Assembly: GCA_027923505.1 (NCBI GenBank)
Contig: BROI01000011.1
Coordinates: forward strand, 868,001-932,000
DNA from: Mayamaea pseudoterrestris
Taxonomy: Eukaryota
Direction: 5' to 3'
DNA length: 64,000 nucleotides
A program made the position numbers and the translations under genes. Below the pieces are notes generated by a model. That model was given only the letters and a program-made list of their open reading frames with translations, had not been told where the DNA came from and did not search any database. Below, one piece after another: positions 1 through 47,518 of this stretch (its first letter is position 1; each line of letters begins with the position of its first letter).

Positions 1-3000
1 CTTGTAGCGCAGCCTGAATAATGATGTTGGCACCATTCTGGTGTAATTTGGGCACCTACAGGGCTTGCTGTAGGGGCGTTTGAATGTCATGGCATCTGCG
101 GGCTGAGACTGGTGACAAGTTGTCACCAAATACATTGCCATCCCCTGAGACACCAGCCAAGCCTACCATCTTGTAGTGCAGCCTGAAAAATGATGTTGGC
201 ACCATTCTGGTGTAATTTGGGCACCTACAGGGCTTGCTGTAGGGGCGTTTGAATGTCATGGCATCTGCGGGCTGAGACTGGTGACAAGTTGTCACCAAAT
301 ACATTGCCATCCCCTGAGACACCAGCCAAGCCTACCATCTTGTAGCGCAGCCGGAAAAATGATGTTGGCACCATTCTGGTGTAATTTGGGCACCTACAGG
401 GCTTGCTGTAGGGGCGTTTGAATGTCATGGCATCTGCGGGCTGAGACTGGTGACAAGTTGTCACCAAATACATTGCCATCCCCTGAGACACCAGCCAAGC
501 CTACCATGTTGTAGCGCAGCCTGAAAAATGATGTTGGCACCATTCTGGTGTAATTTGGGCACCTACAGGGCTTGCTGTAGGGGCGTTTGAATGTCATGGC
601 ATCTGCGGGCTGAGACTGGTGACAAGTTGTCACCAAATACATTGCCATCCCCTGAGACACCAGCCAAGCCTACCATCTTGTAGCGCAGCCTGAATAATGA
701 TGTTGGCACCATTCTGGTGTAATTTGGGCACCTACAGGGCTTGCTGTAGGGGCGTTTGAATGTCATGGCATCTGCGGGCTGAGACTGGTGACAAGTTGTC
801 ACCAAATACATTGCCATCCCCTGAGACACCAGCCAAGCCTACCATCTTGTAGCGCAGCTGGAATAACGATGTTGGCACCATTCTGGTGTAATTTGGGCAC
901 CTACAGGGCTTGCTGTAGGGGCGTTTGAATGTCATGGCATCTGCGGGCTGAGACTGGTGACAAGTTGTCACCAAATACATTGCCATCCCCTGAGACACCA
1001 GCCAAGCCTACCATGTTGTAGTGCAGCCTGAAAAATGATGTTGGCACCATTCTGGTGTAATTTGGGCACCTACAGGGCTTGCTGTAGGGGCGTTTGAATG
1101 TCATGGCATCTCGGGCTGAGACTGGTGACAAGTTGTCACCAAATACATTGCCATCCCCTGAGACACCAGCCAAGCCTACCATCTTGTAGCGCAGCCTGAA
1201 TAATGATGTTGGCACCATTCTGGTGTAATTTGGGCACCTACAGGGCTTGCTGTAGGGGCGTTTGAATGTCATGGCATCTAGGGCGCCAAAGGCTCGGCTG
1301 AGACTGGTGACAAGTTGTCACCAAATACATTGCCATCCCCTGAGACACCAGCCAAGCCTACCATCTTGTAGTGCAGCCGGAATAATGATGTTGGCACCAT
1401 TCTGGTGTAATTTGGGCACCTACAGGGCTTGCTGTAGGGGCGTTTGAATGTCATGGCATCTGCGGGCTGAGACTGGTGACAAGTTGTCACCAAATACATT
1501 GCCATCCCCTGAGACACCAGCCAAGCCTACCATCTTGTAGCGCAGCCTGAATAATGATGTTGGCACCATTCTGGTGTAATTTGGGCACCTACAGGGCTTG
1601 CTGTAGGGGCGTTTGAATGTCATGGCATCTGCGGGCTGAGACTGGTGACAAGTTGTCACCAAATACATTGCCATCCCCTGAGACACCAGCCAAGCCTACC
1701 ATGTTGTAGTGCAGCCTGAATAATGATGTTGGCACCATTCTGGTGTAATTTGGGCACCTACAGGGCTTGCTGTAGGGGCGTTTGAATGTCATGGCATCTG
1801 TGTGCTGAGACTGGTGACAAGTTGTCACCAAATACATTGCCATCCCCTGAGACACCAGTCAAGCTACCATGTTGTAGTGCAGCCTGAAAAATGATGTTGG
1901 CACCATTCTGGTGTAATTTGGGCACCTACAGGGCTTGCTGTAGGGGCGTTTGAATGTCATGGCATCTGCGGGCTGAGACTGGTGACAAGTTGTCACCAAA
2001 TACATTGCCATCCCCTGAGACACCAGCCAAGCCTACCATCTTGTAGTGCAGCCTGAAAAATGATGTTGGCACCATTCTGGTGTAATTTGGGCACCTACAG
2101 GGCTTGCCGTAGGGCGGAGACGAGGTTTGGCACGCGGGCTGAGACTGGTGACAAGTTGTCACCAAATACATTGCCATCCCCTGAGACACCAGCCAAGCCT
2201 ACCATGTTGTAGCGCAGCCTGAAGAATGATGTTGGCACCATTCTGGTGTAATTTGGGCACCTACAGGGCTTGCTGTAGGGGCGTTTGAATGTCATGGCAT
2301 CTGCGGGCTGAGACTGGTGACAAGTTGTCACCAAATACATTGCCATCCCCTGAGACACCAGCCAAGCCTACCATGTTGTAGTGCAGCCTGAATAATGATG
2401 TTGGCACCATTCTGGTGTAATTTGGGCACCTACAGGGCTTGCTGTAGGGGCGTTTGAATGTCATGGCATCTGCGGGCTGAGACTGGTGACAAGTTGTCAC
2501 CAAATACATTGCCATCCCCTGAGACACCAGCCAAGCCTACCATCTTGTAGCGCAGCCTGAATAATGATGTTGGCACCATTCTGGTGTAATTTGGGCACCT
2601 ACAGGGCTTGCTGTAGGGGCGTTTGAATGTCATGGCATCTGCGGGCTGAGACTGGTGACAAGTTGTCACCAAATACATTGCCATCCCCTGAGACACCAGC
2701 CAAGCCTACCATGTTGTAGCGCAGCCTGAATAATGATGTTGGCACCATTCTGGTGTAATTTGGGCACCTACAGGGCTTGCTGTAGGGGCGTTTGAATGTC
2801 ATGGCATCTGCGGGCTGAGACTGGTGACAAGTTGTCACCAAATACATTGCCATCCCCTGAGACACCAGCCAAGCCTACCATCTTGTAGCGCAGCCTGAAT
2901 AATGATGTTGGCACCATTCTGGTGTAATTTGGGCACCTACAGGGCTTGCTGTAGGGGCGTTTGAATGTCATGGCATCTGCGGGCTGAGACTGGTGACAAG

Positions 3001-6000
3001 TTGTCACCAAATACATTGCCATCCCCTGAGACACCAGCCAAGCCAACCATGTTGTAGTGCAGCCTGAAAAATGATGTTGGCACCATTCTGGTGTAATTTG
3101 GGCACCTACAGGGCTTGCTGTAGGGGCGTTTGAATGTCATGGCATCTGCGGGCTGAGACTGGTGACAAGTTGTCACCAAATACATTGCCATCCCCTGAGA
3201 CACCATCCAAGCTAACCATCTTGTAGTGCAGTCTAAATAATGATGTTGGCACCATTCTGGTGTAATTTGGGCACCTACAGGGCTTGCTGTAGGGGCGTTT
3301 AAATGTCATGGCATCTGCGGGCTGAGACTGGTGACAAGTTGTCACCAAATACATTGCCATCCCCTGAGACACCAGCCAAGCCTACCATGTTGTAGTGCAG
3401 CCTGAAAAATGATGTTGGCACCATTCTGGTGTAATTTGGGCACCTACAGGGCTTGCTGTAGGGGCGTTTGAATGTCATGGCATCTGCGGGCTGAGACTGG
3501 TGACAAGTTGTCACCAAATACATTGCCATCCCCTGAGACACCAGCCAAGCCTACCATCTTGTAGCGCAGCCTGAATAATGATGTTGGCACCATTCTGGTG
3601 TAATTTGAGCACCTACAGGGCTTGCTGTAGGGGCGTTTGAATGTCATGGCATCTGCGGGCTGAGACTGGTGACAAGTTGTCACCAAATACATTGCCATCC
3701 CCTGAGACACCAGCCAAGCCTACCATGTTGTAGTGCAGCCTGAAAAATGATGTTGGCACCATTCTGGTGTAATTTGGGCACCTACAGGGCTTGCTGTAGG
3801 GGCGTTTGAATGTCATGGCATCTGCGGGCTGAGACTGGTGACAAGTTGTCACCAAATACATTGCCATCCCCTGATACACCAGCCAAGCCTACTAGGTTGT
3901 AGTACAGCCTGAAAAATGATGTTGGCACCATTCTGGTGTAATTTGGGCACCTACAGGGCTTGCTGTTGGGGCGTTTGAATGTCATGGCATCTGCGGGCTG
4001 AGACTGGTGACAAGTTGTCACCAAATACATTGCCATCCCCTGAGACACCAGCCAAGCCTACCATCTTGTAGTGCAGCCTGACAGCCTGAATAATGATGTT
4101 GGCACCATTCTGGTGTAATTTGGGCACCTACAGGGCTTGCTGTAGGGGCGTTTGAATGTCATGGCATCTGCGGGCTGAGACTGGTGACAAGTTGTCACCA
4201 AATACATTGCCATCCCCTGAGACACCAGCCAAGCCTACCATGTTGTAGCGCAGCCTGAATAATGATGTTGGCACCATTCTGGTGTAATTTGGGCACCTAC
4301 AGGGCTTGCTGTAGGGGCGTTTGAATGTCATGGCATCTGCGGGCTGAGACTGGTGACAAGTTGTCACCAAATACATTGCCATCCCCTGAGACACCAGCCA
4401 AGCCTACCATCTTGTAGCGCAGCCTGAATAATGATGTTGGCACCATTCTGGTGTAATTTGGGCACCTACAGGGCTTGCTGTAGGGGCGTTTGAATGTCAT
4501 GGCATCTGCGGGCTGAGACTGGTGACAAGTTGTCACCAAATACATTGCCATCCCCTGAGACACCAGCCAAGCCAACCATGTTGTAGTGCAGCCTGAAAAA
4601 TGATGTTGGCACCATTCTGGTGTAATTTGGGCACCTACAGGGCTTGCTGTAGGGGCGTTTGAATGTCATGGCATCTGCGGGCTGAGACTGGTGACAAGTT
4701 GTCACCAAATACATTGCCATCCCCTGAGACACCATCCAAGCTAACCATCTTGTAGTGCAGTCTAAATAATGATGTTGGCACCATTCTGGTGTAATTTGGG
4801 CACCTACAGGGCTTGCTGTAGGGGCGTTTAAATGTCATGGCATCTGCGGGCTGAGACTGGTGACAAGTTGTCACCAAATACATTGCCATCCCCTGAGACA
4901 CCAGCCAAGCCTACCATGTTGTAGTGCAGCCTGAAAAATGATGTTGGCACCATTCTGGTGTAATTTGGGCACCTACAGGGCTTGCTGTAGGGGCGTTTGA
5001 ATGTCATGGCATCTGCGGGCTGAGACTGGTGACAAGTTGTCACCAAATACATTGCCATCCCCTGAGACACCAGCCAAGCCTACCATCTTGTAGCGCAGCC
5101 TGAATAATGATGTTGGCACCATTCTGGTGTAATTTGAGCACCTACAGGGCTTGCTGTAGGGGCGTTTGAATGTCATGGCATCTGCGGGCTGAGACTGGTG
5201 ACAAGTTGTCACCAAATACATTGCCATCCCCTGAGACACCAGCCAAGCCTACCATGTTGTAGTGCAGCCTGAAAAATGATGTTGGCACCATTCTGGTGTA
5301 ATTTGGGCACCTACAGGGCTTGCTGTAGGGGCGTTTGAATGTCATGGCATCTGCGGGCTGAGACTGGTGACAAGTTGTCACCAAATACATTGCCATCCCC
5401 TGATACACCAGCCAAGCCTACTAGGTTGTAGTACAGCCTGAAAAATGATGTTGGCACCATTCTGGTGTAATTTGGGCACCTACAGGGCTTGCTGTTGGGG
5501 CGTTTGAATGTCATGGCATCTGCGGGCTGAGACTGGTGACAAGTTGTCACCAAATACATTGCCATCCCCTGAGACACCAGCCAAGCCTACCATCTTGTAG
5601 TGCAGCCTGAAAAATGATGTTGGCACCATTCTGGTGTAATTTGGGCACCTACAGGGCTTGCTGTAGGGGCGTTTAAATGTCATGGCATCTGCGGGCTGAG
5701 ACTGGTGACAAGTTGTCACCAAATACATTGCCACCCCCTGAGACACCAGCCAAGCCTACCATCTTGTAGCGCAGCTGGAATAATGATGTTGGCACCATTC
5801 TGGTGTAATTTGGGCACCTACAGGGCTTGCTGTAGGGGCGTTTGAATGTCATGGCATCTGCGGGCTGAGACTGGTGACAAGTTGTCACCAAATACATTGC
5901 CATCCCCTGAGACACCAGCCAAGCCTACCATCTTGTAGCGCAGCTGGAATAATGATGTTGGCACCATTCTGGTGTAATTTGGGCACCTACAGGGCTTGCT

Positions 6001-8980
6001 GTAGGGGCGTTTGAATGTCATGGCATCTGCGGGCTGAGACTGGTGACAAGTTGTCACCAAATACATTGCCATCCCCTGAGACACCAGCCAAGCCTACCAT
6101 CTTGTAGCGCAGCCTGAATAACGATGTTGGCACCATTCTGGTGTAATTTGGGCACCTACAGGGCTTGCTGTAGGGGCGTTTGAATGTCATGGCATCTGCG
6201 GGCTGAGACTGGTGACAAGTTGTCACCAAATACATTGCCATCCCCTGAGACACCAGCCAAGCCTACCATCTTGTAGCGCAGCCTGAATAATGATGTTGGC
6301 ACCATTCTGGTGTAATTTGGGCACCTACAGGGCTTGCTGTAGGGGCGTTTGAATGTCATGGCATCTGGGGGCTGAGACTGGTGACAAGTTGTCACCAAAT
6401 ACATTGGAATAATGATGTTGGCACCATTCTGGTGTAATTTGGGCACCTACAGGGCTTGCTGTAGGGGCGTTTGAATGTCATGGCATCTGCGGGCTGAGAC
6501 TGGTGACAAGTTGTCACCAAATACATTGCCATCCCCTGAGACACCAGCCAAGCCTACCATCTTGTAGCGCAGCTGGAATAATGATGTTGGCACCATTCTG
6601 GTGTAATTTGGGCACCTACAGGGCTTGCTGTAGGGGCGTTTGAATGTCATGGCATCTGCGGGCTGAGACTGGTGACAAGTTGTCACCAAATACATTGCCA
6701 TCCCCTGAGACACCAGCCAAGCCTACCATCTTGTAGCGCAGCCTGAATAACGATGTTGGCACCATTCTGGTGTAATTTGGGCACCTACAGGGCTTGCTGT
6801 AGGGGCGTTTGAATGTCATGGCATCTGCGGGCTGAGACTGGTGACAAGTTGTCACCAAATACATTGCCATCCCCTGAGACACCAGCCAAGCCTACCATCT
6901 TGTAGCGCAGCCTGAATAATGATGTTGGCACCATTCTGGTGTAATTTGGGCACCTACAGGGCTTGCTGTAGGGGCGTTTGAATGTCATGGCATCTGGGGG
7001 CTGAGACTGGTGACAAGTTGTCACCAAATACATTGCCATCCCCTGAGACACCAGCCAAGCCTACCATCTTGTAGCGCAGCCTGAATAATGATGTTGGCAC
7101 CATTCTGGTGTAATTTGGGCACCTACAGGGCTTGCTGTAGGGGCGTTTGAATGTCATGGCATCTGCGGGCTGAGACTGGTGACAAGTTGTCACCAAATAC
7201 ATTGCCATCCCCTGACAGACCAGCCAAGCCTACCATCTTGTAGCGCAGCCGGAATAACGATGTTGGCACCATTCTGGTGTAATTTGGGCACCTACAGGGC
7301 TTGCTGTAGGGGCGTTTGAATGTCATGGCATCTGCGGGCTGAGACTGGTGACAAGTTGTCACCAAATACATTGCCATCCCCTGAGACACCAGCCAAGCCT
7401 ACCATCTTGTAGTGCAGCCTGAATAATGATGTTGGCACCATTCTGGTGTAATTTGGGCACCTACAGAGCCTGCTGTAGGGGCGTTTGAGAGTCATGGCAT
7501 CTGCGGGCTGAGACTGGTGACAAGTTGTCACCAAATACATTGCCATTCCCTGAGACACCAGCCAAGCCTACCATCTTGTAATGCAGCCCGAAAAATGATG
7601 TTGGCACCATTCTGGTGTAATTTGGGCACCTACAGGGCTTGCTGTAGGGGCGTTTGAATGTCATGGCATCTGCGGGCTGAGACTGGTGACAAGTTGTCAC
7701 CAAATACATTGCCATCCCCTGAGACACCAGCCAAGCCTACCATGATGTAGTGCAGCCTGAATAATGATGTTGCCACCATTCTGGTGTAATTTGGGCACCT
7801 ACAGGGCTTGCTGTAGGGGCGTTTGAATGTCATGGCATCTGCGGGCTGAGACTGGTGACAAGTTGTCACCAAATACATTGCCATCCCCTGAGACACCAGC
7901 CAAGCCTACCATGATGTAGTGCAGCCTGAATAATGATGTTGCCACCATTCTGGTGTAATTTGGGCACCTACAGGGCTTGCTGTAGGGGCGTTTGAATGTC
8001 ATGGCATCTGCGGGCTGAGACTGGTGACAAGTTGTCACCAAATACATTGCCATCCCCTGAGACACCAGCCAAGCCTACCATCTTGTAGTGCAGCCTGAAT
8101 AATGATGTTGGCACCATTCTGGTGTAATTTGGGCACCTACAGGGCTTGCTGTAGGGGCGTTTGAATGTCATGGCATCTGCGGGCTGAGACTGGTGACAAG
8201 TTGTCACCAAATACATTGCCATCCCCTGAGACACCAGCCAAGCCTACCATCTTGTAGCGCAGCCTGAATAATGATGTTGGCACCATTCTGGTGTAATTTG
8301 GGCACCTACAGGGCTTGCTGTAGGGGCGTTTGAATGTCATGGCATCTGCGGGCTGAGACTGGTGACAAGTTGTCACCAAATACATTGCCACCCCCTGAGA
8401 CACCAGCCAAGCCTACCATCTTGTAGCGCAGCCTGAATTATGATGTTGGCACCATTCTGGTGTAATTTGGGCACCTACAAGGCTTGCTGTAGGGGCGTTT
8501 GAATGTCACGGCATCTGTGGGCTGAGACTGGTGACAAGTTGTCACCAAATACATTGCCATCCCCTGAGACACCAGCCAAGCCTACCATCTTGTAGTGCAG
8601 CCTGAATAATGATGTTGGCATGATTCTGGTGTATTTTGGGCACCTACAGGGCCTGATGAAAGGGCGTTTGAATGTCATGGCATCTGCGGGCTGAGACTGG
8701 TGACAAGTTGTCACCAAATACATTGCCATCCCCTGAGACACCAGCCAAGCCTACCATCTTGTAGCGCAGCCTGAATAATGATGTTGGCACCATTCTGGTG
8801 TAATTTGGGCACCTACAGGGCTTGCTGTTGGGGCGTTTGATTGTCACGGCAAGTGTGGGCTGAGACTGGTGACAAGTTGTCACCAAAGACATTGCCATCC
8901 CCTGAGACACCAGCCAAGCCTGCCATTTTGTAGCGCAGCCGGAATAATGATGTTGGCACCATTCTGATGTGATTTGGGTG
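1..8980. repeat. 169-bp tandem satellite array, ~53 copies visible, open at the left window edge
   Basis: Near-identical unit (…GATGTTGGCACCATTCTGGTGTAATTTGGGCACCTACAGGGCTTGCTGTAGGGGCGTTTGAATGTCATGGCATCTGCGGGCTGAGACTGGTGACAAGTTGTCACCAAATAC…) recurs every 169 bp; ORF track offsets are also 169. The last ~3 copies are more diverged. Confidence 0.99.
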
Positions 8981-9283
8981 TATACATGGCATGTTATCGT
9001 AGAAGGATATATGCATATATCCGGACATGCTTCACGACATTAATGGGTGTAACTTGGTGCGACATGCCGTACTTCTTGGCGTTCATGCAGTCTACTCCAA
9101 TGACCCATAAATGACTGGTGGTTCAGCGACATCATCTACCCGGGCCAGTTAATTTAGCATCCTGCGTCTGCTGGTTGGTAATGTTTATGCGCGCGTAGCG
9201 CGCAAAAGTAGTCGTTGCAGACATTGTAAAAGCATTGATCCTTCCACCTCCCGCCCCGCGAATGTGTTCTGGGCCATTTTTTG

Positions 9284-9310
9284 ATGTCACGGCATCTGCG
9301 GGCTGAGACT
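9284..9310 (+). repeat. Isolated fragment of the 169-bp unit
   Basis: ATGTCACGGCATCTGCGGGCTGAGACT matches the monomer with one C/T difference, ~300 bp beyond the array end. Confidence 0.85.
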
Positions 9311-9601
9311 ACCTGCATCCACAATACCTGATGCAACACCTGACGCAACAGCCCATGGCGTCGCACACGCAATCGGGCGTCACTGTTCGTTTACGACTGG
9401 TTTTCAAGAGGTACGATTCGCATTGGAAACGGTATGCAATCTTGGATCTTGGGCCTGCAAGTTGCTTGCAATCTTCGAAACTCACTATCAACACTGCTGA
9501 ACAAGGGCCTTACTCAACACCAGTAGCTAAATCATACAACTGTAAGTGCTTATATTTAAATATTGATCCGTACTATACCGGTAGTTTGTGTCCAGTTTGT
9601 T

Positions 9602-15200: not shown

Positions 15201-16446
15201 CTTCCTCATCGTCATAGTCATTGTCTTCGTCATCGTAATCATCTTCAGCATCCTCCTGCTCGACCACAACTTCGTCTGACCCGTACGAGTAGTTCGGGTC
15301 GTAGGCCGTGTAAGCAAGCGCCGCCTGGATGATCTTTTCAAGGTGGGGTTCCACTTCATTGGGACAGCTTCGAACAAACGACTCAAAACCCATAAAACAT
15401 GACTCTCGGAGTTCATTCGCCAAGGCCGTCGCTGCATCGCCCCTGTTATCGCTGTCCATGGCAACGTCAGTCCCTTCGTCCATGTCTTGATCCTCATCGT
15501 CATCATCGCCCGTGACGGCATCCTCTGGATCCGTAAACCGCAAGAAGATGGGCAAGATACGATCGATTTGCTGCTGTCCAAGACGATGCCCAACTTGTCC
15601 AGACACGGCACACATGGTGCGAATCAAAGCGCGCGTGTCGGCATTCTTTTGTGAAGGCATAGTTCCAGCGGCCGAGTGAGCTGACCGCGTCTTGCGCCGC
15701 CCAACCTTGCCAACTCCCTGAGCCATGTCAATTTGACTCAATAAGCTTTCCACCATACGCATCAACAAGGCATCCGATAGGACAACAGAAAGACAAGCCA
15801 TGGTAGTTCCGGCGCGCTTGCGAGCGACTGGATAAGGCGACTCAGAAAGCTGCTTGAGGCACGTTTGTAGAATTGGTTCATGCTGCTTGACCACCGATGC
15901 TGCAGACCCACCAAAACGCTGCAACAAATCCGTGAGAATATCAAAGCAAGCAAGAATGATCTCCTCGTCTTCCGACTTGACGCCCCGCTCCAAAATGCGT
16001 GACACTAGCTTTTCCGCCACCTTGTTTCCCATGCTCGCCGGAACCGTCTTTACCAACGTTCGAAGACCAATCGCGTACACGTCACGCAGCTCCGTCTTGG
16101 AAGCATCAAGTACTTGATCCGTTAAAGAGTCTTCAATCTCAAGAACAAGCTCCTCTTGAACAGTAATCAAAAGCACGCTCAGAGTCTTGACCGCCACTGC
16201 TTGTACGTCATGCGACTTGTCGTGCAATAGATTCAACACGGCCTTGCAAATGGACCGCTCCGTCGACGTATCAAGCGTCGCCATTGCCGCATTGTCCGCA
16301 TCGGCGCCTGGATTGCTTCCATACTGCTGCTGGTGGCGCTTGAGAACCTCGCAAAGATCCGACGTGGCCATATACCGCTCGTCCTTGTCGTAATGCTCCG
16401 TCTTTTTGAGAAGGGCGGGGATGCTGACGGAGAGAGCGTCGGTCAT
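12272..16446 (-). CDS. CAND1: Cullin-associated NEDD8-dissociated protein 1 (2 exons, intron 13860-13927)
   Basis: N-terminal DKDERYMATSDL, central YDPNY…DDDDESWKVRRSA, C-terminal RKVDLGPFTHKVDDALPLRK. A GT-AG intron joins the two ORFs in frame. Confidence 0.95.
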
Positions 16447-16828
16447 TGTGGTTCAGCAGAGTAATAGAGAGATAGACGAAAGGGTTGCTGCAAAATACAA
16501 GATAGCTGTCAAAGACTGTAGTCCGAGTGCCAAGGAAGCACGACAGTCTTGAGAATTCTCATGGTCGACCACAGCGCGCGCCGCGACGATGAGCAAAGAT
16601 CCAACCGGACCGACGGACAGACGCTCGCCGCCACCTTCCTCTATGTACCGGTACGGTAATGAAAGCTACCGCATCTAATCAAATTTTTAAAGTACTAGCA
16701 GTTCCATCTGCAGCCGTCCTGACAATTGGCTAGTGACTTTAAATAATGTTGGAGCTAATAGAGACTACGTTGAAAGAAATGCACGAGCTTTCATCGTGCT
16801 TTTTGCTTTACCTGAACTGTATTCGTAC

Positions 16829-35914: not shown

Positions 35915-36346
35915 GCTCGATGCAGAGTCTATAAGTGGCTGTTCCTCTTCCGAATTTGTCGCAAGCAGCTTCGTTCGCAAAAAGAAATATTCAACCGTCT
36001 ACCGGTAGAGACCTGCAATATTATATTCTTGCTAGCGTCCTTGTAGAGACTATCAGTATCCTATATCTCTACACCAGCGGGAGCCGCTCACTTGTTTGTT
36101 TCGATTTGTTCCTTCGACCAAGCGCAGTTCGTGTAAAGCACGCCGCAAGGGGGCACTCGATCGGCGACGTGGAGCCGCGCCCGCGCGCTACACATGATTG
36201 GCGCGCATGATTGCGCGTGCTTGTTTATGGCAATGTGACTGCAATCACGAATTATTGAAGCAATCAATGACTGTGAAAGAAAAATGAGTTGATTTAAAGG
36301 TCTCACTTTCAATTATGGCACAAAAGACATTTTATATATATAATTA

Positions 36347-36448
36347 TTCTACAAAGCAGTGGTTCAATCAGTACTCTTGTATGGCAGCGAATTGTGGAAC
36401 ATGAGTTCCCCTATGCTGAAGATGTTACAAGGCTTCCACCACCAGGTA
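36347..36448 (+). pseudogene. Fragment of non-LTR retrotransposon (RTE-like) reverse transcriptase, C-terminal/thumb region
   Basis: Manual translation gives FYKAVVQSVLLYGSELWNMSSPMLKMLQGFHHQV, matching the Y.A.V..vLLYG.E.W…L..FH pattern of RTE-clade LINEs. Flanked by AT-rich junctions and too short for the ORF track. Confidence 0.75.
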
Positions 36449-36705
36449 ATAGTAACTAATACTTTATATTACTAGTGTCAGAGCCTAGGAGGGGAGGAAC
36501 CACTGTCGGGGATTGGTATCACAGTGACAACCCCTGCTCTCTGGAGGCCAGTTTCAAATGAATGTAGCGATAGCTAAAAAGGGTGCACTGCTGGCACATT
36601 CAACCTTGTGTTTGGTGCAACAAAATCATCCATAGCTGCTTCCAAGCAGCTATGTTATGGGAAGGCAGTTCAGACATCCACACAGGAACCAGCTCCATAG
36701 TGCTT

Positions 36706-36874
36706 ATGCCGTGACATTTAAACGCCCCTACAGCAAGCTCTGTAGGTGCCTAAAATACACCAGGAAGGTGCCAACATCATTATTCATGCTGCGCCACAAC
36801 ATGGTAGGCTTGACTGGTGTCTCAGGGGATGGCAATGTATTTGGTGACAACTTGTCACCAGTCTCAGTCCGCAG
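36706..36874 (-). mobile_element. Single inverted full-length 169-bp satellite monomer inserted in the second island
   Basis: Ungapped reverse complement of the 169-mer (about 11 substitutions by eye). An empty copy of the target is at ~37050-37075. Confidence 0.9.
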
Positions 36875-37399
36875 CAGTGCATGGCCTTCCAAACCTACCC
36901 ACAGTTGTAGTCTTGCCCCATTAATTCCATTCGGCTATGCTTGGGGACATGCTTGTGGTGAGACTGGTGCATATAAATCATCCAGAGCTGATTCTTAGCA
37001 GCTATGGTATGGGAGGGCAATCCAGACATCCACACAGGTACCAGCTCCATGGTGCTACAGTGCATGGCCTTCCAAACCTACCCACCATGGCATATGTGGA
37101 GGTGGATACGCAGTGCAACTGACCATCTTATGGCCCATCATGACAACACACATGATGCAAAAGATATTGCAGGGCTCAGCAGGCAATGCAGATGATCCCT
37201 GCTGCCAAAAAGGGAGCAGTGCTGGCACATTCAACCATTTCTTATATGTGCGGAGTCTCAGGGCATAGTGATGGCTTCCCACTTAAGACGGCGAAAAGTC
37301 CACCCAGGTGCACCGCAACAAAATTGTAGACCTTGTCTCACCTCATATGTAACAACTTATGGACAGACTTCAATAGTAATGGCTTTTACACGACAGGAT

Positions 37400-40300
37400 A
37401 AATGTTCAAGTCCATGTTAGTTGTATTATGGGGTCTGGAGGCCATTTCGGAAGTCTCACTTGCCACTTGAGGTGCACCACTGGCAGATCCAACAAGTTGT
37501 TAGATCTGCTCAGTCTCACCATGGCATATGTGGTGGTGGATACTGCAGTGCAACTGACCAACTTATGGCCCATCATGATAACAAACATATATTAAAGATA
37601 TTGGAGGGCTCAGCAGGCTATGCTGATGATCCCTGCAGCCAAAAAGGGAGCAGGGCTGGCACATTCAACCAGTTGTTGAATGTGCAAAGTTTCAGGGCAA
37701 AGTAATGGCGTTTACACCCAAATTGACAAGTCTATGTGTTGCAATGACTGTTAAGGTCCATGTTTGTTGTATTATGGGGTCTGGAGGTCATTTTGGAAGT
37801 CTCACTTGCCACTTGAGGTGCATTGCTAGCAGATCCAACAAGTTGTAGGATCTGCTCAGTGTCTCACCATGGCATATGTGGAGGTGGATACTGCAGTGCA
37901 AATGACCAACTTATGGCCCATCATGACAACACACATGATGCAAAAGATATTGGAGGGCTCAGCAGGCAATGCTGATGATCCCTGCAGCCAAAAAGGGAGC
38001 AGGGCTGGCACATTCAACCAGTTGTTGAATGTGCGGAGTTTCAGGGCATAGTGATGGCTTTCACACCCAAACAGACACGTCTATGATTCCCAATTACTGT
38101 TAAGGTCCATGTTTGTTGTATTATGGGGTCTGGAGGCCATTTTGAAAGTCTCACTTGCCACTTGAGGTGCACCACTGGCAGATCCAACAAGTTGTAGGAT
38201 CTGCTCAGTGTCTCACCATGGCATATGTGGCGGTGGATACTGCAGTGCAAATGACCAACTTATGGCCCATCATGACAACAAACATGATGCAAAAGATATT
38301 GGAGGGCTCAGCAGGCAACGCTGACGATCCCTGCAGCCCATCATGATATGATACATATATTAAAGATATTGGAGGGCTCAGCAGGCTATGCTGATGATCC
38401 CTGCAGCCAAAAAGGGAGCAGGGCTGGCACATTCAACCAGTTGTTGAATGTGCAAAGTTTCAGGGCAAAGTAATGGCGTTTACACCCAAATTGACAAGTC
38501 TATGTGTTGCAATGACTGTTAAGGTCCATGTTTGTTGTATTATGGGGTCTGGAGGTCATTTTGGAAGTCTCACTTGCCACTTGAGGTGCATTGCTAGCAG
38601 ATCCAACAAGTTGTAGGATCTGCTCAGTGTCTCACCATGGCATATGTGGAGGTGGATACTGCAGTGCAAATGACCAACTTATGGCCCATCATGACAACAC
38701 ACATGATGCAAAAGATATTGGAGGGCTCAGCAGGCAATGCTGATGATCCCTGCAGCCAAAAAGGGAGCAGGGCTGGCACATTCAACCAGTTGTTGAATGT
38801 GCGGAGTTTCAGGGCATAGTGATGGCTTTCACACCCAAACAGACACGTCTATGATTCCCAATTACTGTTAAGGTCCATGTTTGTTGTATTATGGGGTCTG
38901 GAGGCCATTTTGAAAGTCTCACTTGCCACTTGAGGTGCACCACTGGCAGATCCAACAAGTTGTAGGATCTGCTCAGTGTCTCACCATGGCATATGTGGCG
39001 GTGGATACTGCAGTGCAAATGACCAACTTATGGCCCATCATGACAACAAACATGATGCAAAAGATATTGGAGGGCTCAGCAGGCAATGCTGATGATCCCT
39101 GCAGCCAAAAAGGGAGCAGGGCTGGCACATTCAACCAGTTGTTGAATGTGCGGAGTTTCAGGGCATAGTGATGGCTTCCACACCCAAACAGACAAGTCTA
39201 TGAGTCCCAATTACTGTTAAGGTCCATGTTTGATGTATTATGGGGTCTGGAGGCCATTTTGGAAGTCTCACTTGCCACTTGAGGTGCACCACTGGCAGAT
39301 CCAACAAGTTGTAGGATCTGCTCAGTGTCTCACCACGGCATATGTGGAGGTGGATACTGCAGTGCAAATGACCAACTTATGGCCCATCATGACAACACAC
39401 ATGATGCAAAAGATATTGGAGGGCTCAGCAGGCAATGCTGATGATCCCTGCAGCAAAAAAGGGAGCAGGGCTGGCACATTCAACCAGTTGTTGAATGTGC
39501 GGAGTTTCAGGGCATAGTGATGGCTTCCACACCCAAACAGACACGTCTATGATTCCCATTCAATGTTTAAGTCAATGTTGGTTGATTATGGGGTCTGGAG
39601 GCCATTTTGGAAGTCTCACTTGCCACTTGAGGTGCATTGCTAGCAGATCCAACAAGTTGTTGGATCTGCTCAGTCTCACCATGGCATATGTGGCGGTGGA
39701 TACTGCAGTGCAAATGACCAACTTATGGCCCATCATGACAACAAACATGATGCAAAAGATATTGGAGGGCTCAGCAGGCAATGCTGATGATCCCTGCAGC
39801 CAAAAAGGGAGCAGGGCTGGCACATTCAACCAGTTGTTGAATGTGCAGAGTTTCAGGGCATAGTGATGGCTTCCACAGCCAAACAGACAAGTCTATGAGT
39901 CCCAATTTTTGTTAAGGTCTATGTTGGTTGTATTATGGGGTCTAAAGGCTATTTTGGAAGTCTCACTTGCCACTTGAGGTGCACCACTGGCAGATCCAAC
40001 AAGTTGTTGGATCTGCTCAGTCTCACCATGGCATATGTGGTGGTGGATACTGCAGTGCAAATGACCAACTTATGGCCCATCATGATAACAAACATGATGC
40101 AAAAAATATTGGAGGGCTCAGCAAGCTATGCTGATGATCCCTGCAGCCAAAAAGGGAGCAGGGCTGGCACATTCAACCAGTTGTTGAATGTGCGGAGTGT
40201 CAGGGCAAAGTAATGGCTTTTACACCCAAATGGACAAGTCTATGAGTTCAAATAAATGATCAAGTCCATGTTGGTTGATTATGGGGTCTGGAAGCCATTT

Positions 40301-41290
40301 TGGAAGTCTCACTTGCCACTTGAGGTGCACCACTGGCAGATCCAACAAGTTGTAGGATCTGCTCAGTGTCTCACCATGGCATATGTGGAGGTGGATACTG
40401 CAGTGCAAATGACCAACTTATGGCCCATCATGACAACACACATGATGCAAAAGATATTGGAGGGCTCAGCAGGCAATGCTGATGATCCCTGCAGCAAAAA
40501 AGGGAGCAGGGCTGGCACATTCAACCAGTTGTTGAATGTGCGGAGTTTCAGGGCATAGTGATGGCTTCCACACCCAAACAGACACGTCTATGAGTCCCAA
40601 TTACTGTTAAGGTCCATGTTTGTTGTATTATGGGGTCTGGAGGCCATTTTGGAAGTCTCACTTGCCACTTGAGGTGCACCACTGGCAGATCCAACAAGTT
40701 GTTGGATCTGCTCAGTGTCTCACCATGGCATATGTGGCGGTGGATACTGCAGTGCAAATGACCAACTTATGGCCCATCATGACAACAAACATGATGCAAA
40801 AGATATTGGAGGGCTCAGCAGGCAATGCTGATGATCCCTGCAGCCAAAAAGGGAGCAGGGCTGGCACATTCAACCAGTTGTTGAATGTGCGGAGTTTCAG
40901 GGCATAGTGATGGCTTCCACACCCAAACAGACACGTCTATGAGTCCCAATTACTGTTAAGGTCCATGTTGCTTGTATTATGGGGTCTGGAGGCCATTTTG
41001 GAAGTCTCACTTGCCACTTGAGGTGCACCACTGGCAGATCCAACAAGTTGTAGGATCTGCTCAGTGTCTCACCATGGCATATGTTGTGGTGGATACTGCA
41101 GTGCAAATGACCAACTTATGGCCCATCATGACAACACACATGATGCAAAAGATATTGGAGGGCTCAGCAGGCAATGCTGATGATCCCTGCAGCCAAAAAG
41201 GGAGCAGGGCTGGCACATTCAACCAGTTGTTGAATGTGTGGAGTCTCATGGCATGATGATGGGTCCCACACCCTCATTGACAAGACTATG
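37400..41290. repeat. 349-bp tandem satellite array, ~11 copies, with degenerate copies from ~36580 to ~41800
   Basis: Unit (…TATTATGGGGTCTGGAGGCCATTTTGGAAGTCTCACTTGCCACTTGAGGTGCACCACTGGCAGATCCAACAAGTTG…) recurs at ~345-350 bp and contains two 27-bp dyads. Confidence 0.98.
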
Positions 41291-42456
41291 AATTTAAATC
41301 AACTTTAACCTGATTGGTGTTTGTATTCTATGGTCTGGGGACCATTTGGGCAGTTGGATTGGCCACTGATGTGCACTGCCAGCAGATCCAAGAAGTTGTT
41401 GGATGCGCCAAGTCTCACTGACCATGGTGCACATGATGATGTAAACTGACTGTGAGGTGCAACCAATGACATCATTGGCCCCAACATGTCGACAAACATG
41501 AATGGCTTGGATTTGGAGGCTCAGCAGGCAATGCTGATAATCCCAGTAGCCATGAGCGGTGCACTGCTGGCACATTCAACCTTTTGTTGAATGTGCGGAG
41601 CCTCATGGCATGATAATGGGTCCCATACCCTCATTGACAAGACTATGAGTCTTATTCAACCATAAACTGAATACTCCTTCCAACTCTATCATTGGCTGAA
41701 TCATGTCAACGAACTCGAATTGAAAGGAATTGATGGGCTCAGCAGGCAACACTGATGATCTCTGTAGCCAAGAAGGGTGCACTGCTGGCACTTTCAGCCA
41801 AGGTCCCTTTGGAATATGTCCCATCCCATATTGGATCTTAATCTATGATTAGTGCTTCAATTGGCAATTATCTTGAACTGGAGGCATGAGGCAAGCAGGA
41901 GGCAAGTGTGCGTCAAATTGATGGAGGCGGCGGTCATAGTGCCTTTAGAGCAATGTTAGCTTACTAATACACATAACGTGCATGGGACCCTTATGGCTTG
42001 TGTTGGGCTGTCCTGCACTTGCCATCTAACTGGTAGCAGGAGGAAAGCAAAGCTGATGCACAAAATATTTACGTTTGAGAGGTAAGATATGCATAACATC
42101 CGGTACATGTTCATGCTGAATGCTTTTAAACCAGCTGGCAAACATTGGGATGCCAACTCATTTTGCAATTATTATATTGCACATGATCAACAAGGACAAT
42201 ACGCACCTATTCAATTTATTTGGAGTTAGCTTGGGCTTCTTATCAATCAACTGATGTTTTGGTTCAACGTTATATTGCTGGCATTGACTTGGGCAAGATG
42301 TAGTACCACTGTTTACAACTGTGACAAGGCAATGACTATGAGCCAATTCGCGTGATATGCCTACAAGATGGATGCAACTAAAGGGTAAAATGGGCACAAT
42401 GCTGTAGCTAGTACCATACTTATCAACCCGCTCGCCAAAAGCATGTAACTAAACTA

Positions 42457-43590
42457 TCACAGCAGGAGGAGCGTAAAGGCAAATGCAGCAAATGCAGTAA
42501 ACCTCATTGCTTCGATACTTAGACTAGACGAAACATCCTCACCGACTGATCTTCTATCAGCGCTAGGAGCCGCCGACGGTGCTCCGGTAGCTTCGACTTC
42601 GCTTATTATTCGACTGGAAAAGGGGCACCACTGCGAATCGGGCAAGAATGACGCAGTACCAACTTGCGCCAGGTTAGCCTCAACCTCGTCAATACCGGCG
42701 TCACATGTTTCTGGAAAGTATGCCGAGAAGTAGACAGACGAAGGAGCCAAGTAGAAGGACCAGTTGGGATTCCAATCAATCGATTCCTTGACAATGGTGC
42801 CTCCCACCACGAGAAAATTGTCCACGGCCGTGAGCTCTTCACGCGCCGTCTGAATGTTTGCTAGGTCCGTAATGCGAACGATAAAGTGTTGACTCGTATC
42901 CGAAATGTCATCGCGGTTTGCCGAGGCGACAAAGTCGACAAACGTCAAGGGCGCCACCGTGGGGCCGAACGGAGTGGGCATTGGTGAAACTAGCGTCGGC
43001 GCCTGCGACGGAACATCTGACGGTGCATCCGAGAGTGATTCTGAGAGCTCCTCCAACACTCGCGTGCTCCAAGGACACCAAAAATTGTTTGGCAAAAAGT
43101 CAGTCCCAACTGTGGCAAGGTTATCTTGCACGTACTCGACGTTGGCGTCGCATACTTCAATGAACATTTCACCAAAAGTTACAGTGTCTGGATCCAGATA
43201 AAATGACCATTGGGGATAGTTCCATGGTGCTGACTCTTTGACGATTGTACCCGCAATAATTTGAAAGCCTTCCGTTTTGGCAAGCTCTCCTCGAGCAATC
43301 GCAATGGCATCAGGATTAGTGATTCGAGCGATAAAATGTTGGTCCGTATTTGAAATGTTTTGCGAATCAGTCGTTACCAAAAAGTCGACGAAAGCTTCAT
43401 TACTTCCAGTTGCATTAGATGGAGTTGCGTTGACTGGTAGAAAGGCCACTGATGGAGCCATTGATGTGATGGATATCGCCGGAGTAGGAGTCGCGCTTGT
43501 CTGTGTGACGGTAGGTGCTGGAGGGGACGATGATTGCGCAGCTGCGCAACCAGCGAGCAAAAGTGGTAGAAGCCTCCTTACAGTCATCAT
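42457..43590 (-). CDS. Surface protein with two tandem BP74-N / CaM-BP15-like domains
   Basis: Signal peptide; two copies of FIxRIT…I..AR.EL…GTIVKE…WN..WSFYL.P…E.CDA…FLP…WCP.S.R; hydrophobic C-terminus. The family name is recalled, not searched. Confidence 0.8.
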   Translation of the reverse strand: MMTVRRLLPLLLAGCAAAQSSSPPAPTVTQTSATPTPAISITSMAPSVAFLPVNATPSNATGSNEAFVDFLVTTDSQNISNTDQHFIARITNPDAIAIARGELAKTEGFQIIAGTIVKESAPWNYPQWSFYLDPDTVTFGEMFIEVCDANVEYVQDNLATVGTDFLPNNFWCPWSTRVLEELSESLSDAPSDVPSQAPTLVSPMPTPFGPTVAPLTFVDFVASANRDDISDTSQHFIVRITDLANIQTAREELTAVDNFLVVGGTIVKESIDWNPNWSFYLAPSSVYFSAYFPETCDAGIDEVEANLAQVGTASFLPDSQWCPFSSRIISEVEATGAPSAAPSADRRSVGEDVSSSLSIEAMRFTAFAAFAFTLLLL

Positions 43591-43945
43591 GGAGAATGAA
43601 CAATTCACAAAAGCTCTCTACCAAGTAGGCGCCTGGCCAGGCTGTGCTTCCGATATCAATTCAATTTGTGGTTTTGATTTTGTCGGTCACTCGCGAAAAC
43701 GGACCTTGACTGTTTAAACCGGTGCGACGGTCAAAAGCAGTCATCAATCGTGCACGAAACTTTGGGACCATGCTTGCCGATACCGAAGTAGCGGGAGTTG
43801 TGTGCAAGAAATGTAATTAGCTAGTGCAACAAACAGCCATTTCAGCTACTATGTACTCTTATAAAAAGGAGACTGTAAAGTTAATGCCTCCAGATCTTCA
43901 GTGTTTCATTTGTTGTACATTCAATTGGTGCAAAATGCTTTAGTG

Positions 43946-45184
43946 TCATAGAAGAGCAAGCACAAGAAGTAGCAAGTTTGAATGCACCATTGCCAGGCCC
44001 GTCCACATAACTTTGATGTGATCTGCCGACGAAGAGGATGACTCGTCTTCGTCCGACCCGCCGGAGCCATCACTGGTTGGTCCAGTCGCCGGAGAATCAT
44101 TTGGCGACGAGGCGCCACCACCATTGCTGTCGCTAGTACCGCCGCCAGAAGAGTCTGTAGGAGTGTTTCCGCCCCCAGACGAAGAGTCGGTGGGAATGTC
44201 GCCACCGGAAGACGTTTCAAGTTCGCGCAGTATCCTACTGGTGGATGGACACCACTGCAGGTTTGGCAAATATGTTTCGCCGGCGTTTGTTAGATCCAAT
44301 TGAATGAACTTGACCGAAACGTCGCATGTTTCCGAGTATATTGCAGTGAGGCTGACAGTGCTTGGTCGAATGTAAAAGGTCCAATTTGGGTTCCATGAAG
44401 CCGCTTCCTTGTTGATGGTGCCCGTTACAACCAAAAAGTCAGAATCCTTGTCGACCTCATTGCGAGCAGCTTCAATCGTGGATGGATCAGTGATGCGGAC
44501 AATGTAATGTTGACTCGTATCCGAAGGGTTACTTCGATCTGATGTGGCAACAAAGTCAGCCATGGTCGCTGGTGTGACAGTAGGTGATGGAGTCGCTGGC
44601 TCAGTGCCACCGCCGTCGATTCCAGTTCCACCACCCGCAGCAGATGGAGCGATAGTGACTACTGGCGCCTCTGTTGGAGGTATTGTTGGAATAATCAAAG
44701 TGGGAGATGCAGTCGGCGACGGTGTTGGTTTGGGTGAACTCGTTAAAGGGAAAGCTTCGAACGAACAAGTAGCTCCGTCAATGTTAAGCGTGTCAGTGTA
44801 GCCGATCTATAAATCGAGATAGGTTCGTGTCAGTATTGAATCATAAACGAGTGTTTCCTCTCAGTTGCTGTTGCTTACCTCTGTTTGAAAGGAGACTACC
44901 AATGCCGTGGCAAGTATTGTATACGATCCTGCTGCAGCATACGCATGACTATACGGTACAATTTCACCGTCTTGCACTGTTCGATTCTCCGTCGATATGG
45001 CCGTCGCATCACCCCAATCAATGGTAAATGCATAGTCCGAGTCGCCAAAGTTCTTAATGTATGTCAAGGTAACATTTAGCCCCACGCATGTCGGTGGTGA
45101 CTCTGCATTCCAGGCGCCCATGATTTCCTGCGCTGATGCGCAAGTAGCGAGTATAGCGGCTAATAGAAGTCTATAGAGAATCAT
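43946..45184 (-). CDS. Paralogous surface protein with a PKD-like domain and one BP74-like domain (intron 44807-44878)
   Basis: Signal peptide; FTIDWGD…HAYAAAGSYTI (PKD-like); the same WNPNWTFY…ETCD…WCP domain as its neighbour; Ser/Gly stalk and hydrophobic tail. Confidence 0.8.
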
Positions 45185-45472: not shown

Positions 45473-47518
45473 ATGGGCGAAGCAACGGTTACGACGCAAT
45501 ATCGGTGAGTTTGACGAGCGTGTGCTTGGCAAATGTGCAAATGTGAGATCCGTTTTCTCGGTTTGCATACATTTCAATGTTCCTCAACCTCTATCACTCT
45601 CTTCTACAGTATTGAACATGACCTCATCGGCGATGAAAAGGTTCCAATCTCTGCATACTATGGCATTCAGACGCAACGCGCAATGTTGAACTTTGACATT
45701 ACAGGTGTACCCATTGCGCACTTTCCAGAGCTCATTCGAGCCTTGGCAATGGTCAAAAAGGCCGCGGCGCTGGCCAACCATGATTTGGGGCAATTGAGCA
45801 AGGAGAAAATGGATGCTATTGTCTTTGCTTGCGATGATATCATTGAGAATGACGACCTACTTGATCGTACGTTGAACAATCGTTGTTGGCATTTATCATT
45901 TATCCGTTTATTTTCTCGTGTCTTACTCTCATCTTCGGCTTGCCTTTGTCATGCAGAGTTTCCTATTGATCTAATCCAAGGCGGCGCTGGGACGAGTTCC
46001 AATATGTGTGCGAACGAGGTAAGACAATTCTGCTTGCAAGTCTTGCTTTCTTGCTCGTCGGACAATGAGAGTTCGAACGTCGCTCATCCACACTTGTTCC
46101 ACAACAAACAGGTCATTGCCAATCGAGGTCTCGAGCACATGGGCTACAGGAAGGGAGATTACCAGCACTTGCATCCGAACAATGATGTCAACATGTCGCA
46201 GTCCACCAACGACGTTTACCCAACGGCAGCGCGACTGGCGATTGTATTTTCGGACGATCCACTGGTCGAGTCGGTCAAGCATCTCATGGCGGCATTTGAC
46301 GAGAAGGCGGAGGAGTTCAAGGATGTACTAAAACTGGGTCGAACGCAGCTGCAGGATGCCGTGCCCATGACGCTGGGACAAGAGTTCAAGGGTTGGAGCG
46401 TTACACTGGGCAAGGATCTTGACCGCATGGAGCAGCTCGCCGATCTATTTGCAACAGTCAATCTGGGTGGGACGGCTATTGGAACTGGAATTAACACTGA
46501 TCCAAAGTATGCTGGCATTGTCATGAATAAATTGGCGGAAGTTACTGGTCTGGATATTCATACTGCACCGGACATGATTGAGGCCAGCTCGGACATGGGT
46601 GATTTCTTAATATTTTCGGGAATGCTTCGACGTTTGGCCGTCAAGCTGTCCAAGATTGCAAATGACTTGCGCTTATTGTCGAGTGGACCGCGAGGCGGAA
46701 TCAATGACATCAATCTGCCAGCCGTGCAACCGGGGTCTTCAATGTATGTACTCATGCAGAAACCTGTGGCTCTTGCGATCCACTCGCTGCTGGTCTGTTT
46801 CTCACGATTTATCTTTGTTTTCACTGCATAGCATGCCGGGCAAGGTTAACCCTGTCATTCCGGAGGCTGGTACGTGCCGCTTGTGACAAATATGAATATG
46901 TGACCGTTGAACTTGCTAACGCGACGCATCTTGTTGCCTCCAGTGAATCAAACGGCGTTTCAGGTCATTGGAAACGATTTGGCCATTACCATGGCCGCGG
47001 AAGCAGGCCAGTTACAGCTCAACGCAATGGAGCCGCTGATTGTATACAACTTGCTTTCAAACTTGCGCATGTTGACCAACGCATGTAACATGTTGGCTGA
47101 TCGATGCGTGCGTGGGATTACGGCGAATGTCGAACGCTGCAATACCCTTGTCCGCGATAGCATTGGCATTGTGACCGCATTCTCGCCGTTCATCGGGTAC
47201 GAAAAGTCGACGGCGATTGCGAAGGAGGCCCTCCTGACTGGTCGAAACGTTTTGGATCTGATCAAGGAAGAGGGCTTGCTCAGTGATGAGAAGATTGAAG
47301 CCATTATGAAACCCGAAAACTTGACAGGGCCGAGCTCACTGTTCAACCAAAAGAAAATTCCGGAGATGAGCCGGGAACACACGCACATGCGAGTCTCCAG
47401 CATGGATGCGTCCTTTTTCAACATGACCTTGCTGCAAGGAGACGCTGCTCTTCCACGTCCTGTCCATCGACGATCCCAAACGTCGGGCGCTTTTTCAAAG
47501 CGAATTCCGCCGTCGTGA
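45473..47518 (+). CDS. aspA: Aspartate ammonia-lyase (aspartase), 6 exons
   Basis: YYGIQTQRA, QGGAGTSSNM, SQSTNDVYPTA, GRTQLQDAVP, spliced GSSIMPGKVNPVIPE and AEAGQLQLN. Introns at 45505-45609, 45867-45956, 46019-46111, 46744-46831 and 46870-46943. Confidence 0.92.

Follow-up and report, generated by a model that had tools for sequence, protein, structure and literature searches.

A Single Inverted Unit of a 169-bp Satellite Lies in Another Repeat, beside an Empty Copy of Its Target, in a Diatom Genome

The spreading of unit-length satellite DNA through circles has already been described in flies, beetles, and humans, and the locus considered here would appear to be a further example. The closest described case is in the Drosophila simulans clade, where Rsp-like satellite has inserted into 1.688 clusters and truncated repeats at the ends, summing to a whole monomer, are presented as the mark of circle reintegration (Sproul et al. 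2020, PMC7403614). Single alpha-satellite repeats in human euchromatin, most of whose sites carry 2-10 bp duplications, have likewise been given a circle-mediated model (Feliciello et al. 2020, PMC7719264), and the eccDNA of tandem repeats is described as coming in exact multiples of the unit (Cohen et al. 2010, PMC3225859). For the Cast satellites of Tribolium castaneum, which occur in gene-rich regions, circle insertion and carriage by transposons are the two routes named (PMC11610590). Non-LTR retrozymes are hammerhead tandem repeats that give rise to monomeric linear and circular RNAs, according to the account of Cervera and de la Pena (2020, PMC7229834).

At our locus, one unit of a 169-bp satellite stands inverted within a copy of another repeat, here called R, and an empty copy of R follows it in the window (the whole stretch of DNA that was analyzed, 64,000 nucleotides, to which all positions refer). 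The observation of exactly one unit next to an empty paralogous site is confirmed, and the insertion looks real. As in the Rsp-like case, one satellite lies inside another repeat and has an integer length, and end joining or microhomology at a break is the route proposed there. However, the fly insertions, as PMC7403614 describes them, are multi-unit arrays with recurrent junctions and 4-7 bp of microhomology, and their circles were sequenced, whereas ours is one case of a single unit with 0-1 nt of overlap.

The human alpha repeats are also solitary copies of about one monomer in or beside other repeats, and in the account of PMC7719264 each insertion is unique, no role of transposons is seen, and divergence comes later. 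Those copies are often fractional (0.8, 0.9, or 1.3 units), whereas the copy here is exactly 1.00 unit and has no flanking duplication. Tandem-repeat circles of the kind described in PMC3225859 would provide the unit-length intermediate, monomer circles of ~170 bp being below the gel resolution of that report. The 169-bp satellite resembles Cast in lying among genes, and array ends are more variable than interiors in the description of Cast; that description covers arrays surveyed across the whole genome, whose junctions fall at poly(A)/(T) tracts, whereas the junctions here have no such tracts (PMC11610590). Retrozymes, at 150-450 bp and mobile via unit-length RNA, are short tandem repeats too, but the ribozyme that defines them in PMC7229834 is absent here, and GC content here is ~51% rather than low. 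The satellite-like repeats of the Pacific oyster that sit on Helentron-derived elements (PMC7492417) form comparable dispersed short copies, whereas no carrier is visible at our locus.

Among the matches listed for literature on diatom satellites, tandem repeats, or centromeres, as judged by title and the start of the abstract, none describes a diatom satellite, this one included. A clean filled/empty pair with an exactly unit-length insert makes a textbook-quality example of satellite units escaping their arrays, and the lineage is that of the diatoms, although one such case extends the list of examples without establishing any new principle. Should the genome show many integer-length copies, unit-length intermediates would become open to direct tests, and the organism may be one that can be cultured.

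The inserted unit and its target repeat

Table 1. Coordinates of the satellite and repeat features in the window
Feature	Position	Strand	Details
169-bp satellite array	1..8978	+	Tandem Repeats Finder, monomer table, and consensus; cut by the window start; ~53 units
Decayed 32-nt satellite piece	9279..9310	+	Unit positions 152-169 plus 1-15; spans GGCAT^CTGCGG; lies past a 301-bp unrelated segment
Left flank, copy 1 of R	36613..36704	+	85.9% over 92 nt to 36965-37056, E 2e-25
Junction base T	36705	+	A in the empty copy (37057), G in the satellite; a substitution or one filler base
Single inserted 169-bp satellite unit	36706..36874	-	Opened at GGCAT^CTGCGG; 157/169 positions as in the array consensus
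Right flank, copy 1 of R	36875..36902	+	100% over 28 nt to 37058-37085, E 1.5e-8
Empty copy 2 of R	36965..37085	+	Site at 37056-37058
349-bp satellite array	37081..41300	+	Tandem Repeats Finder core ~37403-41291; decayed pieces to ~41700; family separate from R and the 169-bp unit

Tandem Repeats Finder resolves the large array, at a period of 169, into 37.8 copies over 1-6406 (96% matches) and 15.2 copies over 6407-8978. Our consensus was drawn from 44 full-length ungapped units (a BLAST search had returned 55 HSPs in the array), and these clean units are on average 98.4% identical to it. When a dimer of the consensus was compared with the window by BLAST, the insert aligned over 169/169 positions without a gap, on the minus strand and at 92.9% identity (E = 2.9e-69); against single array monomers its identity was 88.1-93.5%. 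Outside the array the same search gave only two matches in the window, the insert and the short decayed piece (at 9280-9310), and nhmmer over 9000-64000 found no satellite copies besides the insert and that tail (at 9279-9353), all other rows having E values of at least 0.005. The family is a satellite by its makeup, with a head-to-tail array and one solitary copy, beyond which the window contains no full unit outside the array.

The satellite would have G at 36705, where the flank of the insert has T, and A at 36875, where the flank has C. These mismatched bases mean that the similarity stops at both ends of the insert and that its length is 169. The description in the first-pass annotation of exactly one ungapped, inverted unit opened at GGCAT^CTGCGG is therefore correct as to both extent and phase. 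An alternative count of 168 plus one shared A would apply if the empty site reads ...GCTTACAG, as a weak joint among the Logan contigs hints. By simple arithmetic, a fragment with random ends would come within 1 nt of a whole unit in about 3/169 of cases, or 1.8%.

The insert differs from the local array consensus at 12/169 positions, and 7 of these 12 are at columns that are invariant in the 44 units. At five of the differing places the letter in the window is a minority one, making up ~5-34% of the satellite-contig depth in one public run (X1); the letter frequencies come from Logan contigs of four public runs aligned at 90% likeness. Variant arrays with the insert's letters exist elsewhere. 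Given the 12 differences, the donor may be an array other than the one at a distance of 28 kb, and the earlier view of it as the insert's own array went further than the evidence on the source; given the variant arrays, the 7% divergence of the insert is not a clean age.

The flanks of the insert recur in the empty copy, 352 bp downstream for the left one and 183 bp for the right one, much as had been reported (~350 bp, without the insert). Besides the divergence of the left flank (85.9%), the two copies of R differ by the insert and by T36705 versus A37057. The junctions read GTGCT T/ATGCC on the left and CCGCAG/CAGTGC on the right, with an overlap of 0-1 nt. The right flank begins with CAG immediately after the terminal CAG of the insert, and this doubled CAG is found at the right junction only. 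Neither a direct duplication spanning the junctions nor an A-run was seen, in keeping with the first reading, which had found no clear target-site duplication or poly-A. Likewise, no motif is common to both junctions, where the Feliciello model has one of 2-10 bp.

The two flanks are not alike in their relation to the satellite. The right flank patchily resembles, in phase, the array sequence that would come next (P = 0.006 with random 32-mers of the window as the control and 0.0185 with shuffled sequence), and nhmmer carries the satellite match on to 36904; the left flank has no such in-phase similarity (P about 0.5-0.6). The patchy similarity on the right is a weak hint that resemblance to the satellite guided the piece into place or primed copying.

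Two other identities for R were considered and rejected. If R were an old unit of the 169-bp satellite, simple unequal exchange would account for the structure, but R aligns with that unit no better than shuffled sequence does (P = 0.14-0.17 inverted, 0.31 forward). Nor is R part of the 349-bp unit, which only 36572-36609 and the sequence from 37083 onward match. R constitutes a separate repeat family, distinct from both the 169-bp and the 349-bp units. In X1, the summed contig depth, which is a rough guide and not a copy number, is about 4,500-5,300 over R at 36610-36691 and ~260 over nearby unique sequence, and it reaches ~62,000 in the bin at 37020-37060, which crosses the empty site. The filled right junction is touched by only one of the contigs listed, at a depth of 169 in X1. 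The contrast between ~62,000 and 169 in that run points to the empty state as the usual one among members of R.

Public-run contigs over the locus

Parts of the stretch are contained in 6 of the 7 public runs listed, which come from two studies; no RNA run among those listed contains it. Among the 32 contig pieces listed (there are 22,761 more), none bridges 36705/36706 or 36874/36875 with at least 31 letters on each side. One X1 contig (record 5) spans 36867-36962 with 0 differences and takes in the last 8 letters of the insert together with the flank. Three further joints, which might be empty or alternative forms, fall below the 31-letter rule. The first, in X1, connects 36704 to 37056 (depth 193, side 26) and resembles the empty form with a left flank of the copy 1 type, which could be another allele or a paralogue; the others connect 36697 to 36934 (X2, side 28) and 36854 to 37046 (X1, side 27).

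The 169-bp satellite reaches a summed depth of 2.6-13 million in X1 and, by this rough measure, is very abundant and a large component of the genome. In all, contigs of four public runs that are labeled as different organisms (X1, X2, X4, and X5) contain it in great abundance. Two of these runs (X4 and X5), from the same study and labeled as other organisms, have the satellite at high summed depth, yet neither covers the unique bins at 36200-36568. The signal in these two runs could reflect shared ancestry or carry-over between the libraries of one study.

Two observations concern the sequence just upstream of R. In one contig each from X1 and X2, position 36258 is joined straight to 36579, skipping 320 bp, with 34 letters on the shorter side; the 36258-36579 segment is therefore missing from some form of the locus, be it a second allele, a subgenome, or a paralogue. 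The unique sequence at 36214-36419 is represented in both X1 and X2 by two contig forms, one with 2 differences and the other with 9 differences plus 8 gap letters in 198 nt, which suggests two well-diverged haplotypes or subgenomes.

Searches with short satellite motifs reached further afield. A 22-nt invariant motif matched a metagenome contig at 1 locus, and we set this match aside as chance, only a 23-nt palindromic stretch being common to it and the satellite. Two satellite motifs gave 0 matches each in viral contigs, and contigs of prokaryote genomes gave 0 matches.

How one unit may have left its array

The best explanation is a one-off insertion, at the DNA level, in which a member of R received exactly one unit of the 169-bp satellite, the major one of the genome. 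As for the route, we hold it about as likely as not that the piece was extrachromosomal and one unit long, probably a monomer circle, and that it was end-joined into a break. A unit would have left an array as such a piece, most likely as a circle looped out by recombination between neighboring units. The circle would then have been opened at an arbitrary point and end-joined into a double-strand break, overlapping it by 0-1 nt and leaving no duplication. The donor was presumably a variant array, which may or may not be the neighboring one in the window, and once inserted the unit would have been outside the homogenization of its array. The 12/169 differences and the minority letters fit both an origin in a variant array and the absence of later homogenization.

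The integer length of the insert is the one feature that informs on the route, and it favors a unit-length piece, in view of the ~1.8% expected from random ends. A whole number of units, opened at any phase, is the signature of circle reintegration, and the insert has 169/169 nt. A longer insert that had since collapsed by recombination between its units would yield exactly 1.00 unit only if its original length had been a whole number. Part of what the first-pass annotation proposed thus stands: a unit-length intermediate predicts the integer length, a signature of the Sproul type. The processed RNA monomer that it offered as one form of this intermediate fares poorly, with no ribozyme, unusual fold, or poly-A to go with it. 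Against a circle, this is a single case (n = 1), and neither its phase nor its integer length can be generalized. The similarity of the right flank might rather be a sign of templated copying that patchy homology had primed. The junctions also have none of the 2-10 bp duplications of the human repeats, and no contig among those listed bridges either junction by the 31-letter rule, both of which count against this reading. A double-stranded circle of 169 bp is also close to the stiffness limit of DNA, which counts against the circle as well.

Templated repair of a break in R, in which sequence was copied from a satellite array (by SDSA with a template switch, by MMBIR, or by polymerase-theta joining) and the tract came to one unit by chance, is a possible but doubtful alternative. 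The in-phase similarity on the right, which nhmmer extends beyond the insert, could have primed such copying, and for the Rsp-like insertions the alternatives under discussion include interlocus conversion and MMBIR (PMC7403614). However, nothing would halt synthesis after exactly 169 nt, so that unit length to within 1 nt would arise by chance at the low rate given above. The left flank, moreover, lacks satellite similarity, and R as a whole is dissimilar to the unit.

It is unlikely that units are released at a fixed phase, by preferential breakage or cutting at GGCAT^CTGCGG, and captured at breaks as linear unit-length pieces. Of the six places in the array that bear indels, three lie within 29 positions around the opening point, and that point falls within a small imperfect palindrome, GCA-TC-TGC. 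The indel enrichment is weak, though (binomial P = 0.067), and the zone was chosen post hoc. The edge of the array that is visible in the window breaks at other positions of the unit: the last clean unit stops at unit position ~122-125 (8975-8978), and the 32-nt tail ends at unit position 15 (9310). This edge is ragged, and its phase differs from that of the insert. Many contig joints do lie near the unit ends, but they are biased, as the reference unit ends there. The weak X1 joint from 36854 to 37046, if real, would be a junction between satellite and R at another phase. A more ambitious version, and one that we consider quite unlikely, has the satellite propagate itself, with unit-length pieces repeatedly released at a fixed phase (through a cut at GGCAT^CTGCGG or an unrecognized self-processing RNA or DNA circle), reinserted, and seeding new arrays. 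The single insert, the weak indel enrichment near the opening point, and the abundance of the satellite in four public runs are compatible with it.

We regard it as very unlikely that a small mobile element is represented by the unit, or that an RNA monomer was processed, possibly circularized, reverse-transcribed, and reinserted in the manner of a retrozyme. Unit length is the sole evidence for this reading, and hammerhead tandem repeats of 150-450 bp are described as behaving in this way in animals (PMC7229834). Rfam gave 0 families in the whole window at the gathering score and 0 matches at E values up to 10 in six array units (6407-7420, 1,014 nt), and around the insert it gave six rows at chance level (E = 2 to 8.4). 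The words CUGANGA and GAAA, which belong to the hammerhead core, are absent from both strands of the unit. By the Rfam and core-word searches, then, the self-cleaving ribozyme that a retrozyme has in every unit was not found. The folds are ordinary, with z scores for the dimer of -2.16 as DNA and of -0.71 and -1.85 as RNA.

The marks of other mobile elements were equally absent. ARAGORN found 0 tRNA genes in the window and no tRNA-like part, and none of the features of a SINE or retroposed copy (an A-rich 3' tail, a target-site duplication, a Pol III head) was seen at the insert. At the phase of the insert the terminal inverted repeat score is 4/12, a value that 58 of the 169 phases equal or exceed, and the insert has neither the terminal inverted repeats nor the target-site duplication of a MITE or cut-and-paste transposon. 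Helitrons begin with TC at the 5' end, terminate in CTRR at the 3' end, and insert between A and T. The unit does not conform to this, reading CTGCGG...GGCAT one way and ATGCC...CGCAG the other. The sequence around the insert shows no carrier element, both sides being repeat R, which also occurs empty. In short, nothing marks the 169-bp unit as a mobile element, and the absence of a target-site duplication, poly-A, terminal inverted repeats, an Rfam family, and a tRNA-like part means that no transposition machinery is implied. With the hammerhead also lacking and the array edge at another phase, the first reading's suggestion of a small mobile element is not upheld.

Least likely among the readings weighed is an assembly artefact in which a chimeric read or a polishing error put one unit here: the extreme abundance of the satellite favors misjoins and none of the contig pieces listed bridges a junction by the 31-letter rule, but record 5 of X1, which may be the assembled sample, holds 8 letters of the insert, the insert is atypical (7 of its 12 differences being at invariant columns), and exactly one unit between intact paralogous flanks would be a rare product of such an error.

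Array edges and genomic setting

The interior of the 169-bp array has irregularities of its own. One unit, at 6365-6486, contains a 47-bp deletion (unit positions 43-89, joint at 6406/6407), to which the 122-bp period reported by Tandem Repeats Finder corresponds, and there are an 8-bp duplication at 4074 and a net insertion of 13 nt at 1280-1295. Between the last clean unit and the 32-nt tail lies a 301-bp segment (8979-9279) that has no second copy in the window and contains short palindromes, including one 18-nt inverted match within the segment. It appears to replace ~27 bp of a unit, in the manner of an insertion into the last unit of the array.

The inserted unit precedes the first recognizable 349-bp unit by ~375 bp, and its target R lies at the decayed, ragged edge of the 349-bp array. 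The first unit of that array (37278-37400) is decayed, as is the far edge, and a 70-bp insertion at 38318 gives a Tandem Repeats Finder period of 419. Between the 169-bp and 349-bp units there is borderline similarity at best (P = 0.03 for the inverted strand and 0.39 for the other).

Both arrays lie between genes in gene-dense DNA, where long open frames for common eukaryotic proteins abound. GC content is ~0.47-0.52 over arrays and genes, rising to 0.54 in the final 2 kb. Pfam hits were obtained for 18 of the 25 long open frames scanned, and the proteins of the window include CAND1, Nup107, Aph-1, V-ATPase A, a formate/nitrite transporter, and a glutathione peroxidase with a ShK domain. For the lyase frame (45515-46831), the best protein match comes from Mayamaea pseudoterrestris, a raphid pennate diatom, at 81% identity, and the next named hits come from other pennate diatoms at 62-64%. 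These matches make the host a diatom-like stramenopile. CAND1/TIP120 is split over two overlapping open frames on the minus strand (12272-14170 and 13924-16452), by an intron or a frame shift. Just past the 349-bp array, two adjoining frames on the minus strand (42457-44806) form a tandem pair, each with a BP74_N domain (E = 5e-60 and 1e-25).
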